From Clostridiaceae bacterium (lineage in GTDB: Bacteria; Bacillota; Clostridia; Saccharofermentanales; DTU023): 64,000 nt of DNA. The notes under the pieces are model-generated. The model was not told the origin of the DNA and searched no databases. It saw only the letters and a list, made by a program, of their open reading frames with translations. The stretch's first letter is position 1. Each line of letters opens with the position of its first letter. The stretch is from NCBI GenBank assembly GCA_012518795.1, contig JAAYRL010000029.1:20607-84606 (forward strand), in the 5' to 3' direction. The position numbers and the translations under genes are program-made. Of this stretch, positions 5,462-9,549 are shown in pieces.

Positions 5462-6865
5462 TTAATCTTTCAAATCGGCAATTTCGCCGAGATCGGGCAG
5501 CCAAACGTCAGAACCATCAATAAAAACATCGAGATTATCTTCTCTGGCAGCGGTTTGACCTGCAATAGTGCCAGGAATAGTGCCATCCAATTGACCACGG
5601 ATACTTTCGGCACGCAAAAGACAGAAATCACAAAATGTTTGAACACCGATTTTAAAATCTTCAAAAGAACAAAAAGCGGTTGGATCCTTTTGAACATAAG
5701 GGGAGATCAAGGCAATTGTTTCAGTAACTTTCAATGAGAAATAATCTGATTCGAAATATTCACGAATCAAATAATCAAAATTTTCTTTATATTGGGCAAA
5801 ATAATCCGGATTTTTCATCAGATTATGATACAGAGGACGTTTGAACATAATTTCTCCAGAAGCGGGCGTAAAAATCGGATGATTGATATAGAGTTCGGCA
5901 TCGTTGATTGGTTCCGGCATACCGAGCGAATAAGTTCCGAATGCCAGATTATAATCCCACGGCAGCATGCTGATAATTCCGTTTTCTTCATAGAGAAAAT
6001 AGTTATGTGCGTTTTTACCTAAATAACCATCAAGATTTACAACAAAAACCTGTACCGGAAAGAATTTTAAGACAGAATTAACGTTTACCGCATCTGTTAT
6101 ATTTTCTCCGGTAGATAAAACCTGCAAAGCTCGGATTAACCTTTTTTTATCCTGTTCAGTCGGATTAAATTTTGCTTTGCGGAAAATATTATCATAACTT
6201 TCCGGATTGTCGTCAATATACCTTAACGCAACATCTGCATTTTCAGCATCGATATTTTTGTAGGCCGGCTTATAGAGCTGACCATGATTAACACCGAAAT
6301 TTCTTCTGGCAAAACCTTGTTCCGGTTCTTCAATTGCCAGATAAAGTCCCCAAGCCTGATCATTAATTGTTAGCCAAACATAGCTGGTCAGAGGAGAAGG
6401 AACATCCATAAATGCCATCATGTCATAGGTAATATAAGATTTTAAATAACTGTTATCCTGAAATGAAGAATCTAGGGAGAATTTGTCTAAACCGTAATAA
6501 CTGTTGGTTACATAATGGTCAAATTCGATTTTGAAACTATAGCGTTCGGAGCCATATCTATGTGTTAGACGTAAAGAATTATTGCCTTTTGTTCTAAAAC
6601 CGACATTCTCGAAATACTCACCGTCGATTTCAATATCCGCAAGTTTATATAACTCTGCTCGCGGATCGGCAAGAATTTCATCCCATTGTTCACAGTAAAT
6701 GTTTATATTATGAACACGACTATCATCAAACAAGCGATGCTCATAGCCGGGATTTAGTCCGGCAGGAAGAATCCCCAAATTTCCGTTCATGAATAAAATG
6801 GTAAAGAGGGAAGCAACAATTAGAATTGTAATGATTATTTTGTCGATATGTTTATGTTTTAACAT
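5462..6865 (-). CDS. CotH-family protein (atypical kinase fold), N-terminal membrane anchor or signal
   Basis: 467 aa. An N-terminal hydrophobic helix (IIITILIVASLFTILFM) is followed by CotH-like blocks (FRTKGNNSL, YSFKIEFD, GLDKFSLDS, GQLYKP, NYFLYEENG..LPWDYNLAFG). Confidence 0.75.
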   Translation of the reverse strand: MLKHKHIDKIIITILIVASLFTILFMNGNLGILPAGLNPGYEHRLFDDSRVHNINIYCEQWDEILADPRAELYKLADIEIDGEYFENVGFRTKGNNSLRLTHRYGSERYSFKIEFDHYVTNSYYGLDKFSLDSSFQDNSYLKSYITYDMMAFMDVPSPLTSYVWLTINDQAWGLYLAIEEPEQGFARRNFGVNHGQLYKPAYKNIDAENADVALRYIDDNPESYDNIFRKAKFNPTEQDKKRLIRALQVLSTGENITDAVNVNSVLKFFPVQVFVVNLDGYLGKNAHNYFLYEENGIISMLPWDYNLAFGTYSLGMPEPINDAELYINHPIFTPASGEIMFKRPLYHNLMKNPDYFAQYKENFDYLIREYFESDYFSLKVTETIALISPYVQKDPTAFCSFEDFKIGVQTFCDFCLLRAESIRGQLDGTIPGTIAGQTAAREDNLDVFIDGSDVWLPDLGEIADLKD

Positions 6866-6942
6866 TTTAATTCAGATAATCAATTTATTTTGATTTTCAC
6901 AAATTATGTTGTGCAGGCATATGTAATATTGTTTCAGCTGAA

Positions 6943-7626
6943 TTAACTCATATAATCGCCGTTGTAGGAAACCATCACAGTGTGATTGACACCTTTAATC
7001 GCAGCCAATTCATTAATAAATGAACTGTCGGCTGATTTCAATCTGACCTCATAATTCAGTTCAATCTGTTCGGGCATAATTGTTTTACTCTTAAGTGAAT
7101 AACGCTTGACCGAATTGATGATATGGCTGAGAATTTCTTTTTCAACATCTTCATCAATGCAATGTACAACTAGTATATAAGGTTGTTCATGAGTTTTTGT
7201 ATTGGCAAAAATCAGCATTATTATTCCAATGAAAAAACTGCCGAACAAGGCAAGAGGAATTAAGCCTGCAGCTAGTACGATACCGACGGCAATGCTCCAA
7301 AATAAAAAAGCAATGTCGGATGGTTCTTTGATTGCAGTTCTGAAACGCACGATTGAAAGCGCACCGACCATACCGAGTGATAGAACAATATTACTGGTTA
7401 CTGCCAAAATCAAGAGTGCGGTAATCATGCTGAGAGCGATCAAAGTGATTCCAAAGCTGGCAGAATACATTACTCCTGAATATGTTTTTTTATAAATAAA
7501 AAAGATAAATATGCCGAGTACAAATGAGAGTAGCAATGTAATCAACATATCCATGAGCGGAACTGCGTTGATATTTTCTAAAAAACTTGATTTGAAAATG
7601 TCCTGAAAGGTTATGGTCATATACAT
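6943..7626 (-). CDS. DUF4956-type integral membrane protein
   Basis: 227 aa with about 4-5 TM helices. It has the block LSLGMVGALSIVRFRTAIKEPSDIAFLFWSIAVGI that I associate with DUF4956, and a soluble C-terminal domain. A good SD (aggaga) lies 8 nt upstream of the start. Confidence 0.65.
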   Translation of the reverse strand: MYMTITFQDIFKSSFLENINAVPLMDMLITLLLSFVLGIFIFFIYKKTYSGVMYSASFGITLIALSMITALLILAVTSNIVLSLGMVGALSIVRFRTAIKEPSDIAFLFWSIAVGIVLAAGLIPLALFGSFFIGIIMLIFANTKTHEQPYILVVHCIDEDVEKEILSHIINSVKRYSLKSKTIMPEQIELNYEVRLKSADSSFINELAAIKGVNHTVMVSYNGDYMS

Positions 7627-7653
7627 GAATTTGATCTCCTGTTATTTAATTTG

Positions 7654-8346
7654 TTAATCGTATTTTCTACACATAGAATATTTGGAATAAGCCGTAAGCG
7701 GACGATTGTTCAAGCAGATTGCCATCTTAACGATATCCGGTAAAAATTCATCATATTTTACTTCTAATACTGCAAGTCCATCTGAAATATCAATGTGCTT
7801 ATTTAATTGTAAGAAATTATCGGTTTTGGTCGTTGTCCTTAAGTTTCGATCTATTGTAATTCGTACATTGCCGGGGTGATAAATAAATGCCTCTCGGTCA
7901 TATGTCACGATAGTTTTCGGTTTTAATAATTGTCCTTTTAATTTTGAATAAAATTCAATTGCTAAGGCATCGTTTTTTTGTAAAAGAAAATCAATTTCCG
8001 CATTGAGAATTTGCTGAACTTCGGTTTGAGTCAACGGTACAGTTTGTTTTGCACATTTTCCGTTAATTTTTATTTTGCGTTCTAAACGGATAAAAGAAAA
8101 ATCGTTGTTATAATAGCGAATGCGGAATTTCTCTCGCTGATTGGTTCCTGATATGTTTTGGCTTAAAGCTTTATCATAAGGGGTATCAAAATATAAACTA
8201 CTCACACGGTAGTTACCGTGTGAGTCGGAATGTTTATCATGCCGGAAAAAATTTTTCAGTGTTCGACTTAGTATGAAACCGTCTGCATGATTAATATTAT
8301 ATTTTTTTTCATTACGTAATTTTAACGTTTCTTTTTTCTTAATCAT
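7654..8346 (-). CDS. VTC-domain (polyphosphate polymerase-like, CYTH-like tunnel fold) protein
   Basis: 230 aa and soluble. VTC-type landmarks: RNEKKY near the N-terminus, SSLYFDTP, FRIRYY, LERKIK and VLEVKYD. It sits in the usual VTC-DUF4956-CotH gene order. Confidence 0.65.
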   Translation of the reverse strand: MIKKKETLKLRNEKKYNINHADGFILSRTLKNFFRHDKHSDSHGNYRVSSLYFDTPYDKALSQNISGTNQREKFRIRYYNNDFSFIRLERKIKINGKCAKQTVPLTQTEVQQILNAEIDFLLQKNDALAIEFYSKLKGQLLKPKTIVTYDREAFIYHPGNVRITIDRNLRTTTKTDNFLQLNKHIDISDGLAVLEVKYDEFLPDIVKMAICLNNRPLTAYSKYSMCRKYD

Positions 8347-8455
8347 TTAAAAATATTTCCGGATGATTCAAAATAGTTTTTGTTTTATTTGTTCTTAGAT
8401 CAGTTTTAATTTAGATTTTTTCAGATAGTGATTATTAATTAGTGATTATATAATC

Positions 8456-9316
8456 CTAATCATCATAGTCCGAATCCTCATAATCTGAATTATCTGCTAT
8501 GGGAGCAGCAGTCGGTGCAGCTGTCGGAGCATAATCCGTTTCATCATAATCGGTGTAATCTTCAGTCGTAGCAGCTGTCGGAGCGTAATCTGTCTCATCA
8601 TAATCAGTATCATCTACTGTCGGATCGTAATCTGTTTCATCATAATCGGTGTCATCTACTGTTGGGGCAGTAGTTGGATCATAATCTGTTTCATCATAGT
8701 CCGTTTGATCTTTGGTAGTTGGTACAGTAATTGTTATAGCATTGCTGTCATCTTTATTGTCTTTTTTACTATCTTTATTGTCTTTATGATTATTATCTTT
8801 ACTTTCTTTATCATTATTATCTTTATTGTTAGTGTCAAGTTCTACATCAAGATTTAATTCACTAACTTTTTCTTCGACAGCTTTTCCGATGTTAACGATA
8901 AAATCTTCATTCGGCAAGTAAGAACCTTCCTTTAATTCTAAAGTTAGAGTTTTAGCCTGGCTGCCGACTTCATGAACAAAATATCCGGCAGTATTGATTT
9001 TATCAACTAATTCTTGAAGAACGACAGTTGAATCTTTGCCGATATAATTATCATAACCTTTTACAAGATTTGTACCATCTTTGTTTGTACCACGTACATC
9101 GGTAACCTTACCATTTTTATCATATTCAATTTCAATTTTCGGATTTATTGAAAGTACGATTACACCTCTTTCAGAATCAGTATCTATTTCTTCTAATTTA
9201 GTATTTGACTTTGTTTGGCTACCGCAACTTGTGAGTAAAAGTACCAATAATAACGCTGTGAGGGAAAGTGCCAATACTATCGAAATGATTCCTAATAAAT
9301 TTAATTTTTTATTCAT
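8456..9316 (-). CDS. Lipoprotein with lysine/aspartate-rich linker and C-terminal acidic Asp/Tyr/Thr repeat tail
   Basis: 286 aa. Signal peptide plus lipobox (LLLTSCGS). The linker reads NNKDNNDKESKDNNHKDNKDSKKDNKDD. It is followed by about 8 copies of (T/S)DYDETDYD(P/A)T-like repeats running to the C-terminus. Strong SD aaggag. Confidence 0.7.
   Translation of the reverse strand: MNKKLNLLGIISIVLALSLTALLLVLLLTSCGSQTKSNTKLEEIDTDSERGVIVLSINPKIEIEYDKNGKVTDVRGTNKDGTNLVKGYDNYIGKDSTVVLQELVDKINTAGYFVHEVGSQAKTLTLELKEGSYLPNEDFIVNIGKAVEEKVSELNLDVELDTNNKDNNDKESKDNNHKDNKDSKKDNKDDSNAITITVPTTKDQTDYDETDYDPTTAPTVDDTDYDETDYDPTVDDTDYDETDYAPTAATTEDYTDYDETDYAPTAAPTAAPIADNSDYEDSDYDD

Positions 9317-9472: not shown

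Positions 9473-9549
<77 letters not shown>

Follow-up and report, generated by a model that had tools for sequence, protein, structure and literature searches.

A predicted sigma-I-controlled operon encoding a SEAL-domain lipoprotein, a VTC-type protein, a DUF4956 membrane protein and a CotH-family kinase in an uncultured Clostridia bacterium

We analyzed a stretch of 64,000 nucleotides from Clostridiaceae bacterium (assembly GCA_012518795.1, contig JAAYRL010000029.1, positions 20,607 to 84,606), to which we refer as the window, and focused on four genes encoded on its minus strand between positions 9316 and 5462. In order of transcription these encode a SEAL-domain lipoprotein (gene 1, 9316-8456, 286 aa), a VTC/triphosphate-tunnel protein (gene 2, 8346-7654, 230 aa), a DUF4956 membrane protein (gene 3, 7626-6943, 227 aa) and a CotH-family kinase (gene 4, 6865-5462, 467 aa), with intergenic gaps of 109, 27 and 77 bp. 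An earlier interpretation made from the letters of the window, here called the sequence-only reading, had described four tightly spaced co-directional genes for an acidic-tailed lipoprotein and for members of the VTC, DUF4956 and CotH families. The open reading frames lie exactly where it had placed them, and Pfam searches confirmed all three family assignments. The source genome is a 1.87-Mb assembly with 36% GC from an uncultured Clostridia bacterium, and its nearest relatives are metagenome-assembled genomes from anaerobic digesters, labelled Clostridiaceae or Saccharofermentanales.

The same set of genes is found in many other bacteria. A one-genome-per-species scan reported 232 relatives of the CotH protein with 57-90% identity, and 80 of the loci were fetched. 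These span many families of Clostridia and Erysipelotrichia (Lachnospiraceae, Oscillospiraceae, Erysipelotrichaceae, Anaerovoracaceae and others), and include cultured isolates. Among the carriers are cultured gut commensals, such as Intestinimonas butyriciproducens, Traorella massiliensis, Claveliimonas monacensis, Allofournierella massiliensis, Merdimmobilis hominis, and isolates of Faecalibacterium and Gemmiger. The order SEAL lipoprotein-VTC-DUF4956-CotH is kept in ~62 of the 80 loci, where the genes often overlap or abut.

The lipoprotein begins with a signal peptide and the lipobox LTSC (aa 1-31, nt 9316-9224, minus strand as for all features of the operon), where L28-T-S-C31 was read from the sequence, and it ends in an acidic repeat tail (aa 176-286, nt 8791-8459), recognized by its composition and repeats. 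Both features agree with the sequence-only reading, which had missed the domain lying between them. This SEAL/RsgI_M domain (aa 52-175, nt 9163-8792) matches Pfam family PF23750 with E 1.9e-14 and 54.8 bits, above the cut-off of 25.3. PF23750 represents the juxtamembrane SEAL/periplasmic domain of RsgI anti-sigma factors, and SEAL domains were reported to cleave themselves at a conserved Asn-Pro between their first two strands, with both pieces staying attached (PMC10328401). In the window lipoprotein the putative autocleavage motif is Asn58-Pro59 (nt 9145-9140), within LSIN58-P59KIEI. From P59 onward the protein aligns, weakly (E 0.22), with chain B of 8hep, a crystal structure of the RsgI periplasmic domain, starting at the first residue of that chain, which is the residue immediately after the cleavage site. 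We therefore predict a SEAL/RsgI_M autoproteolysis domain that is cleaved at Asn58-Pro59. The RsgI_N anti-sigma domain is not found in the window lipoprotein and a lipoprotein signal peptide stands in its place, so that gene 1 appears to encode the outer half of RsgI on a lipid anchor instead of an anti-sigma domain.

The tail of the lipoprotein comprises 33% D+E, 19% T and 10% Y. It is composed of a Lys/Asp/Asn-rich linker followed by (T/S)DYDETDYD(P/A)T units, which are also visible as repeats in the DNA, and its C-terminal end is SDYEDSDYDD. Lipoprotein homologues encoded proximally in ~60 loci show the same build: the lipobox and a VNPEI motif are kept in nearly all of them, and their tails contain 12-56% D+E, 4-18% Tyr and almost no K/R, with Asp preceding Tyr in 778 of 1159 cases and DYDD at the end. 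The commonest tail unit among the homologues is TDYGPNNDGVTDYND. A protein tail with DY repeats is the one feature that always accompanies this CotH subfamily. Besides RsgI_M (and PepSY in some relatives) Pfam reported no match, and hence no known calcium-binding family, for these proteins. The acidic tail is a candidate kinase substrate and/or a candidate module for the binding of cations or polyphosphate (polyP). The linker DTNNKDNNDKESKDNNHKDNKDSKKDNKDDSN that precedes the DY repeats (window 8760-8840, aa ~160-190) is rich in Lys, Asp, Asn and Ser, and resembles the acidic Ser/Lys clusters reported as sites of polyP binding or polyphosphorylation in eukaryotes. Lysines in the tail are confined to the clade of the three closest relatives (L001-L003), with 7-14% K+R vs. 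~0% elsewhere.

To the SEAL domain the region upstream of gene 1 adds a putative sigma-I-type promoter (9431-9377), identified from the consensus of related loci and from a genome scan. The sequence gACCCCg.TTTt...TcCGTAttCTaT was found upstream of the lipoprotein gene in 63 of the 63 loci that had enough upstream sequence, and all 63 share a promoter of the type ACCCC-N19-CGWA. In the window, the -35 element ACCCC (9416-9412) is followed by a 19-nt A/T-rich spacer and by the -10 element CGGA (9392-9389), then ATCTAT, which sets the predicted transcription start ~62 nt 5′ of the ATG of gene 1. Published sigma-I promoters, to whose type this motif conforms, have a C-rich/A-tract -35 region and a -10 element C-14 G-13 W-12 A-11 (PMC10575876). 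We ran a position weight matrix, built from the related loci, over both strands of the whole 1.87-Mb genome, and it returned two strong sites only: one before a sigI gene on another contig, C16 (score 32.2), and one before the window operon (29.0), while the next best site scored 19.3. A search of the operon region for sigma-70 promoters gave many matches, to which we attach no weight. At many related loci (L010, L019, L030, L037 and others) the sigma-I motif is present in 2-3 copies, one before sigI and 1-2 before the lipoprotein gene, and 211 instances were counted in the 80 loci.

The gene on C16 belongs to a sigI-rsgI pair (C16:64920-66621) that is unlinked to the operon. The sigma factor matches SigI models only, over its full length, and its score against TIGR02895 (161.5 bits) is just below the 185-bit cut-off. 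Its RsgI partner consists of RsgI_N, a membrane helix and RsgI_M with the motif MQINPKIELD, and carries the tail SSYDDSDSDYDDYDDDSDYDDYDDYDDYDDYD. Elsewhere such a pair lies next to its putative target: a sigI-like gene and a true RsgI, with both RsgI_N and RsgI_M, are encoded just upstream in 52 of the 80 loci, and the RsgI proteins at these loci have an INPEV motif and acidic tails rich in (S/T/G)DY(D/G). Since the only two strong promoter sites of the genome precede the operon and the C16 sigI, regulation of the operon by a SigI/RsgI cell-surface sensor circuit is well supported by the promoter comparison, and the four genes are apparently the dedicated and only external target predicted for this pair. 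In the vicinity of sigI-rsgI, at C16:56716-60487 and 77113-78585, we also observed ppx/gppA and ppk1 at a distance of ~5 kb and a two-domain ppk2 10 kb away on the other side; this proximity may be a coincidence.

The four genes are probably transcribed together, because the gaps between them hold neither a terminator nor a stable structure, their counterparts in relatives overlap or abut, and a single conserved promoter lies upstream. Indeed, a terminator scan found none within or directly after the operon, no stable structure was found in the intergenic gaps, and the 109-nt gap 3′ of gene 1 showed no significant fold (z 0.31).

The protein encoded by gene 2 matches PF09359 with E 6e-39 over profile positions 2-231 of 235. 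Its 230 residues make up the tunnel domain only, with no SPX domain and no helices of the Vtc1 type (DUF202), and it is predicted to be cytoplasmic. A direct phmmer search of PDB with this protein gave no match; a profile of 19 homologues did retrieve yeast Vtc4 (3g3q, E 9e-6). In a Foldseek search with the AF2 model (pLDDT, the model's own confidence score, 89.8) the top seven matches were chains of Vtc4, with E values from 1e-11 to 8e-11 and TM (template modelling) scores up to 0.70, and Vtc4 chains ranked above YgiF, the CYTH enzymes and most chains of Vtc2 and Vtc3. Residues R11/K15, R75/R77, R90/K91, Y149/R151, R162, E195/K197 and S221/K222 are invariant in the 19 homologues and correspond, in the same order, to R196/K200, R264/R266, R280/K281, Y359/R361, R373, E426/K428 and S457/K458 of Vtc4; R75/R77, K91, Y149/R151 and R162 were placed by alignment to the hidden Markov model, and K15, E195 and S221-K222 by motif and spacing, so that these latter equivalences are presumptive. 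In Vtc4, mutation of the matching residues lowers the polyP content, the catalytic set being K200, R264, R266, K281, Y359, R361, E426, S457 and K458. Lys458 is the residue that is absent from the non-catalytic Vtc2/3, and its equivalent, K222, is kept here. The tunnel residues on which a catalytic role depends are thus intact, and the protein, which resembles the catalytic domain of the Vtc4 polyP polymerase, may be a polymerase as well.

Besides two VTC genes the genome has ppk1, ppx and ppk2, and thus the complete set of canonical polyP genes. VTC would therefore not be needed for bulk polyP, and a specialized role is favored. The second VTC gene lies in another VTC-DUF4956-CotH trio (C9:58042-63579, minus strand), paralogous to that of the window (40%, 59% and ~40-47% identity). 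Genes for a histidine kinase and an OmpR-type response regulator precede this trio, and a sigma-I site is absent nearby. Its CotH protein of 679 aa contains a ~140-aa insert of PD(M/I)SDIP-like repeats within the kinase domain and has a C-terminal membrane helix.

With 60-98% identity, DUF4956 shows the highest conservation among the four proteins. It matches PF16316 with E 3.6e-12 and 46.8 bits (cut-off 30.6), and consists of five predicted helices (aa 24-141, nt 7557-7204) followed by a predicted cytoplasmic domain with the ACT-like order beta-alpha-beta-beta-alpha-beta (aa 149-220, nt 7182-6967), taken from the AF2 model (pLDDT 77). Two stretches hardly vary among homologues, the block SLGMVGALSIVRFRTAIKEPxDIAFLFW and, at the C-terminus, SYNGDYM. 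Its best Foldseek match is the C-terminal domain of MgtC (2lqj, E 6e-4), which covers the ACT-like domain only, and in a test of membership in the MgtC/SapB family it scored 27.3 bits against NF007431, whose cut-off is 214, and stayed below every MgtC family cut-off. Homology of DUF4956 to the yeast VTC channel was considered and rejected, as the sequence search of PDB returned noise and Foldseek the MgtC ACT-like domain only. The parallel that the sequence-only reading had drawn to the coupling of polymerase and channel in yeast (Vtc1/Vtc4) has accordingly no support in DUF4956 similarity and is an analogy at best.

The CotH protein (PF08757, E 4.9e-54) starts with the K/H-rich segment MLKHKHIDK and a single hydrophobic helix, a predicted signal anchor (aa 10-27, nt 6838-6785), followed by a predicted extracytoplasmic kinase domain (aa 91-421, nt 6595-5603). 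Its alignment with the structure of B. cereus CotH (5jd9, E 5.8e-16) includes the motifs NLDG, HNY and WDY, and places D279, N288 and D304 at the catalytic Asp, the Asn and the metal-binding Asp, respectively. All three are invariant in 82 homologues. In B. subtilis CotH, mutants at D228 and D251 are inactive (PMC7821199); the spacing of D279 and D304 is 25 residues vs. 23 for D228/D251, and their equivalence follows from the gapped alignment with 5jd9, where inserts of 4 residues in the query and of 2 residues in the target occur, and not from equal spacing. By its residues the kinase thus seems catalytically intact, and it is predicted to be anchored with its domain facing outward, in line with the sequence-only reading, which had described a membrane-anchored protein. 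It does not look like a spore-coat protein of the mother cell, as it is predicted to be anchored outside and its putative promoter is of the sigma-I type and not of the sigma-K type.

Across 301 evenly drawn Bacillota genomes, VTC and DUF4956 were present in the same 45 (Fisher p 1e-54), and in 50 of 54 cases the VTC gene was located within 1.5 kb of DUF4956; of the other four, three are apparently at contig breaks and one has CotH between the two genes. CotH was found in 42 genomes, 36 of which are also VTC-positive (odds ratio 167, p 7e-32), and 33 of the 54 VTC genes have a CotH gene at a distance of at most 5 kb. Of the six genomes with CotH only, four carry just the spore type, a protein of ~360 aa that lacks an export signal and is unlinked to VTC in two VTC-positive genomes too. 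Leaving out the spore type, 36 of 38 genomes with CotH also hold the VTC-DUF4956 pair; one of the CotH-only genomes, G201, carries a CotH of unclassified type. In 14 named control genomes the three families were present in the same three, B. thetaiotaomicron, C. glutamicum and M. acetivorans, and CotH additionally in B. subtilis. VTC and DUF4956 are thus an obligate pair; exported CotH is nearly always accompanied by this pair, and the pair is not always accompanied by CotH, so that the coupling is frequent and not obligatory. The claim that the trio recurs in bacterial genomes with no assigned function agrees with these counts and with the literature. Together with the shared order in the fetched loci, the complete overlap of VTC and DUF4956 (45/45) puts the arrangement far beyond chance.

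The version with DY repeats, SEAL domain and sigma-I promoter is one lineage of this wider family. A search of the 301 genomes with the repeat TDYGPNNDG gave one strong match, directly upstream of the VTC-DUF4956-CotH genes of that genome; as a test for DY repeats away from CotH it has low power, with one other genome among the 301 carrying repeats. Next to VTC-DUF4956 pairs without CotH (loci L081-L092 and L100) lie a two-component system and, in the position of CotH, either a secreted beta-helix protein of 620-810 aa of the Cthe_2159 family (PF14262, E 6e-100) or a protein with leucine-rich repeats (LRR) and a lamin-tail domain (LTD).

The operon is flanked by upp and a tRNA-Arg gene upstream, and by genes for a short-chain dehydrogenase/reductase (SDR) and a serine-palmitoyltransferase-like enzyme downstream. 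The 530-bp region between upp and the operon holds two separate transcription units. One is tRNA-Arg(ACG) (9473-9549, minus strand), which lies between upp and the sigma-I promoter, has an A/T-rich terminator-like hairpin and is preceded by a near-consensus sigma-70 promoter (9596-9568, minus strand; TTGACA-17-TACAAT). The other starts from the sigma-I promoter, located downstream of the tRNA gene and its hairpin. The two downstream genes (5219-3013, minus strand) were considered as members of the operon and rejected, as none of the 80 loci, the closest relatives L001-L003 included, has them 3′ of CotH; the genome scan found no sigma-I site near them. The SDR resembles 3-ketodihydrosphingosine reductase (NF049977, 202 bits) and its neighbor matches NF047600 with 491 bits, both below the cut-off, and the two may point to sphingolipid synthesis in a Clostridia bacterium.

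Taken together, we propose that the operon serves as effector of a SigI/RsgI circuit dedicated to envelope signalling, and that it makes, and probably exports, polyP for an extracytoplasmic kinase acting on repeat tails, a reading to which we give a probability of about one half. A signal at RsgI, with its self-cleaving SEAL domain and disordered tail rich in Asp and Tyr, would lead to regulated proteolysis and to the release of SigI, which would then transcribe its own operon and the four window genes from the two ACCCC-N19-CG(W)A promoters. In the cytoplasm VTC would polymerize phosphate from ATP, and the MgtC-like DUF4956, its obligate partner, would convey the polymer, or its phosphoryl groups, to the external side of the membrane, where the anchored CotH, which has no ATP pool of its own, would phosphorylate the (T/S)-D-Y repeats of the SEAL lipoprotein, and probably the tail of RsgI as well. 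Phosphorylation of the tails may alter charge, cation binding or mechanical coupling, and may thereby feed back on the sensor. While the regulatory part is well supported, we infer polyP synthesis, export, the phosphoryl donor of CotH, its substrate and the feedback. A supply chain from polymerase to membrane partner to outward kinase is suggested by the asymmetry of the co-occurrence and by the predicted topology, which puts VTC in the cytoplasm, DUF4956 in the membrane, and both CotH and the lipoprotein on the outside. The DY tails would be the targets in analogy to CotG and CotB, the repeat-rich proteins on which Bacillus CotH acts. In its fullest form, in which VTC and DUF4956 synthesize polyP and thread it out, and CotH uses it as a donor to phosphorylate Thr/Tyr in the TDY repeats of both the lipoprotein and RsgI, closing a SigI feedback loop, the proposal is doubtful. 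The sequence-only reading had already envisaged polyP chemistry coupled through DUF4956 to phosphorylation outside the cell; its families, residues, topology and recurrence stood, its parallel to the yeast channel did not, and it had missed both the SEAL domain and the sigma-I promoter and circuit.

Several observations weigh against this proposal. Bacillus CotH is known as a Ser kinase that uses ATP, and the proposal would require a polyP donor and Thr/Tyr acceptors; we found no literature report of a bacterial VTC protein that makes polyP. No similarity of DUF4956 to the yeast VTC channel was detected, and a protein built like MgtC could be a regulator just as well as a conduit. Judged by the lengths of the open frames, none of the 54 pairs is a fusion of VTC with DUF4956. 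Nine of the 45 genomes with VTC-DUF4956 have no CotH and hold the Cthe_2159 beta-helix or the LRR-LTD protein instead. At ~8 of the 80 loci CotH comes immediately after the lipoprotein with no VTC-DUF4956 nearby, and the 100%-complete genome G013 (L101, G013:C13) encodes a lipoprotein-type CotH (E 3e-90 to that of the window) and gave no VTC or DUF4956 match. The commonest tail unit, GPNNDGVTDYND, resembles, by our own reading, calcium-binding loops of the DxDxDG type, and the tail may thus bind cations rather than serve as a substrate. Finally, the -10 element of the window, CGGA, has one mismatch at the W position of CGWA, while its -35 element and 19-nt spacing match the consensus.

Given these exceptions, a DUF4956 that is MgtC-like and a commonest repeat that looks like a calcium loop, three other explanations stay alive. 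The genes may be co-regulated and chemically separate: VTC-DUF4956 would be an MgtC-like device for phosphate or cation homeostasis, with polyP at the inner face, the tail a calcium- or metal-binding module of the surface or matrix, and CotH a kinase of other targets, with no transfer from VTC to CotH. The resemblance of DUF4956 to MgtC only, the loop-like tail unit, the pairs that lack CotH and the lipoprotein-CotH loci that lack VTC all fit this explanation, which we nevertheless consider unlikely, given the strict common order behind a single common promoter in ~62 loci, the near-absence of exported CotH without the pair, and the need of an outward-facing kinase for a phosphoryl donor in any case. 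Slightly less probable still is a polymer-modifying module, where CotH, possibly with polyP, phosphorylates or otherwise decorates an exopolysaccharide or a cell-wall glycopolymer, and the SEAL proteins act only as sensors of the polymer's state. Such a role would be in line with the trio adjoining Gram-positive pel operons in streptococci, clostridia and bifidobacteria as well as C. perfringens NELoc-2, with the carbohydrate-binding Cthe_2159 beta-helix protein as third gene of CotH-less versions, and with C. thermocellum, where RsgI systems sense polysaccharides and sigma-I6 drives a CotH-dockerin gene. However, the genes flanking the window operon are not glycosyltransferase, deacetylase or pel genes, and in the 80 loci neither gene clustering nor homology searches with the window proteins revealed a recurrent neighbor of the pel type: the recurrent neighbors are the sigma factor and RsgI_M proteins, and the constant companion of this CotH subfamily is a repeat tail on a protein.

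It is improbable, though to be kept in mind, that the VTC protein is not a polymerase and acts as a tripolyphosphatase, a nucleotide cyclase or a nucleoside-triphosphate hydrolase whose product signals through the ACT-like domain of DUF4956. The tunnel fold serves many chemistries, YgiF, CYTH enzymes and thiamine triphosphatase are among the lower Foldseek matches, and ACT-like domains usually bind small ligands; yet the best matches by sequence and by structure are all Vtc4, and the whole triphosphate-binding set of Vtc4 is kept, the Lys458 equivalent included. That the four genes are mere chance neighbors we regard as highly improbable. Relatives have narrower gaps than the 109 bp and 77 bp seen here, but the order is conserved over many families, the co-occurrence is near-perfect, one conserved promoter precedes the genes and the gaps hold no terminator.

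VTC-type enzymes count as the way in which eukaryotes make polyP, and, to our knowledge, DUF4956 has no known function and CotH kinases outside spores are unexplained. Since the operon places VTC, DUF4956 and CotH under a defined switch (SigI/RsgI) with a defined promoter, and offers a plausible substrate, their function can be approached by experiment. If our proposal of a polyP-fed kinase is true, polyP as a donor would answer how proteins can be phosphorylated outside the cell, where ATP is lacking. As a related trio is found in streptococcal biofilm (pel) loci and in a C. perfringens locus, an answer obtained here would carry over to them.

That CotH, a polyP-polymerase-like protein and DUF4956 occur together is already known from two papers on pel operons and one on C. 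perfringens genomics, and the authors of these papers call the function of the trio unknown. We found no open literature that characterizes a bacterial VTC or DUF4956 protein, and none that links SigI/RsgI, SEAL lipoproteins or DY repeats with the trio. The pel accessory genes and NELoc-2 share with the window the families CotH, polyP polymerase and DUF4956 (in some cases with DUF4832), and NELoc-2 also lists a sigma factor and a protein with an anti-sigma domain. Unlike the pel clusters, the window operon is not flanked by pel, glycosyltransferase, deacetylase or DUF4832 genes, as seen from its flanks and not from a genome-wide pel search, and a SEAL lipoprotein with DY repeats and a sigma-I promoter are not described in the pel and NELoc-2 papers.

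Compared with yeast VTC, the tunnel domain has there its closest solved relative, the catalytic residues are conserved, and an obligate membrane partner fits a synthesis coupled to a membrane step. In contrast to yeast, the SPX domain and the Vtc1-type (DUF202) helices are missing, the parts are separate polypeptides, and the partner is an MgtC-like protein with five helices and an ACT-like domain. With MgtC/SapB proteins, DUF4956 shares several N-terminal helices and a cytoplasmic ACT-like C-terminal domain, the best match being M. tuberculosis MgtC-C (2lqj), along with a weak NCBIfam match; it differs in scoring below the family cut-offs, in its own invariant motif VRFRTAIKEPxD and in being always partnered with VTC.

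The CotH-CotG/CotB system of Bacillus resembles the operon in combining an atypical kinase with catalytic Asp/Asn/Asp and a repeat-rich, low-complexity possible substrate; B. subtilis CotH phosphorylates the repeat-rich CotG and CotB (PMC7821199). Whereas Bacillus CotH is a ~360-aa cytoplasmic enzyme of the mother cell, with ATP as donor and with Ser within basic Ser/Lys/Arg repeats as acceptor, the window CotH has a signal anchor and is predicted to face outward, its candidate substrate is acidic and offers Thr/Tyr, and it is tied to VTC-DUF4956, to which the spore type is unlinked. Outside spores, a CotH-dockerin gene of C. thermocellum is sigma-I6-dependent.

The regulatory side is closest to the SigI/RsgI systems, as known from B. 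subtilis RsgI, with its SEAL domain and disordered tail, and from C. thermocellum RsgI1-9, with which it shares a predicted autoregulated promoter that has a C-rich -35 and, in the consensus of the related loci, a CGWA -10. Here, however, the regulon appears to be one operon for VTC, DUF4956, CotH and a lipoprotein and not cell-wall or cellulosome genes, the lipoprotein copies the outer half of RsgI, the tails are arrays of Asp-Tyr repeats, the sensor pair is unlinked from its target, and the -10 of the window is CGGA. What seems to be new is the link of a SEAL lipoprotein with DY repeats and of sigma-I to the trio, which combines a SigI/RsgI circuit with a module of CotH plus a candidate substrate. 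To this the window adds a case in which the sensor pair and the operon lie on different contigs and share the only two such promoters of the genome.

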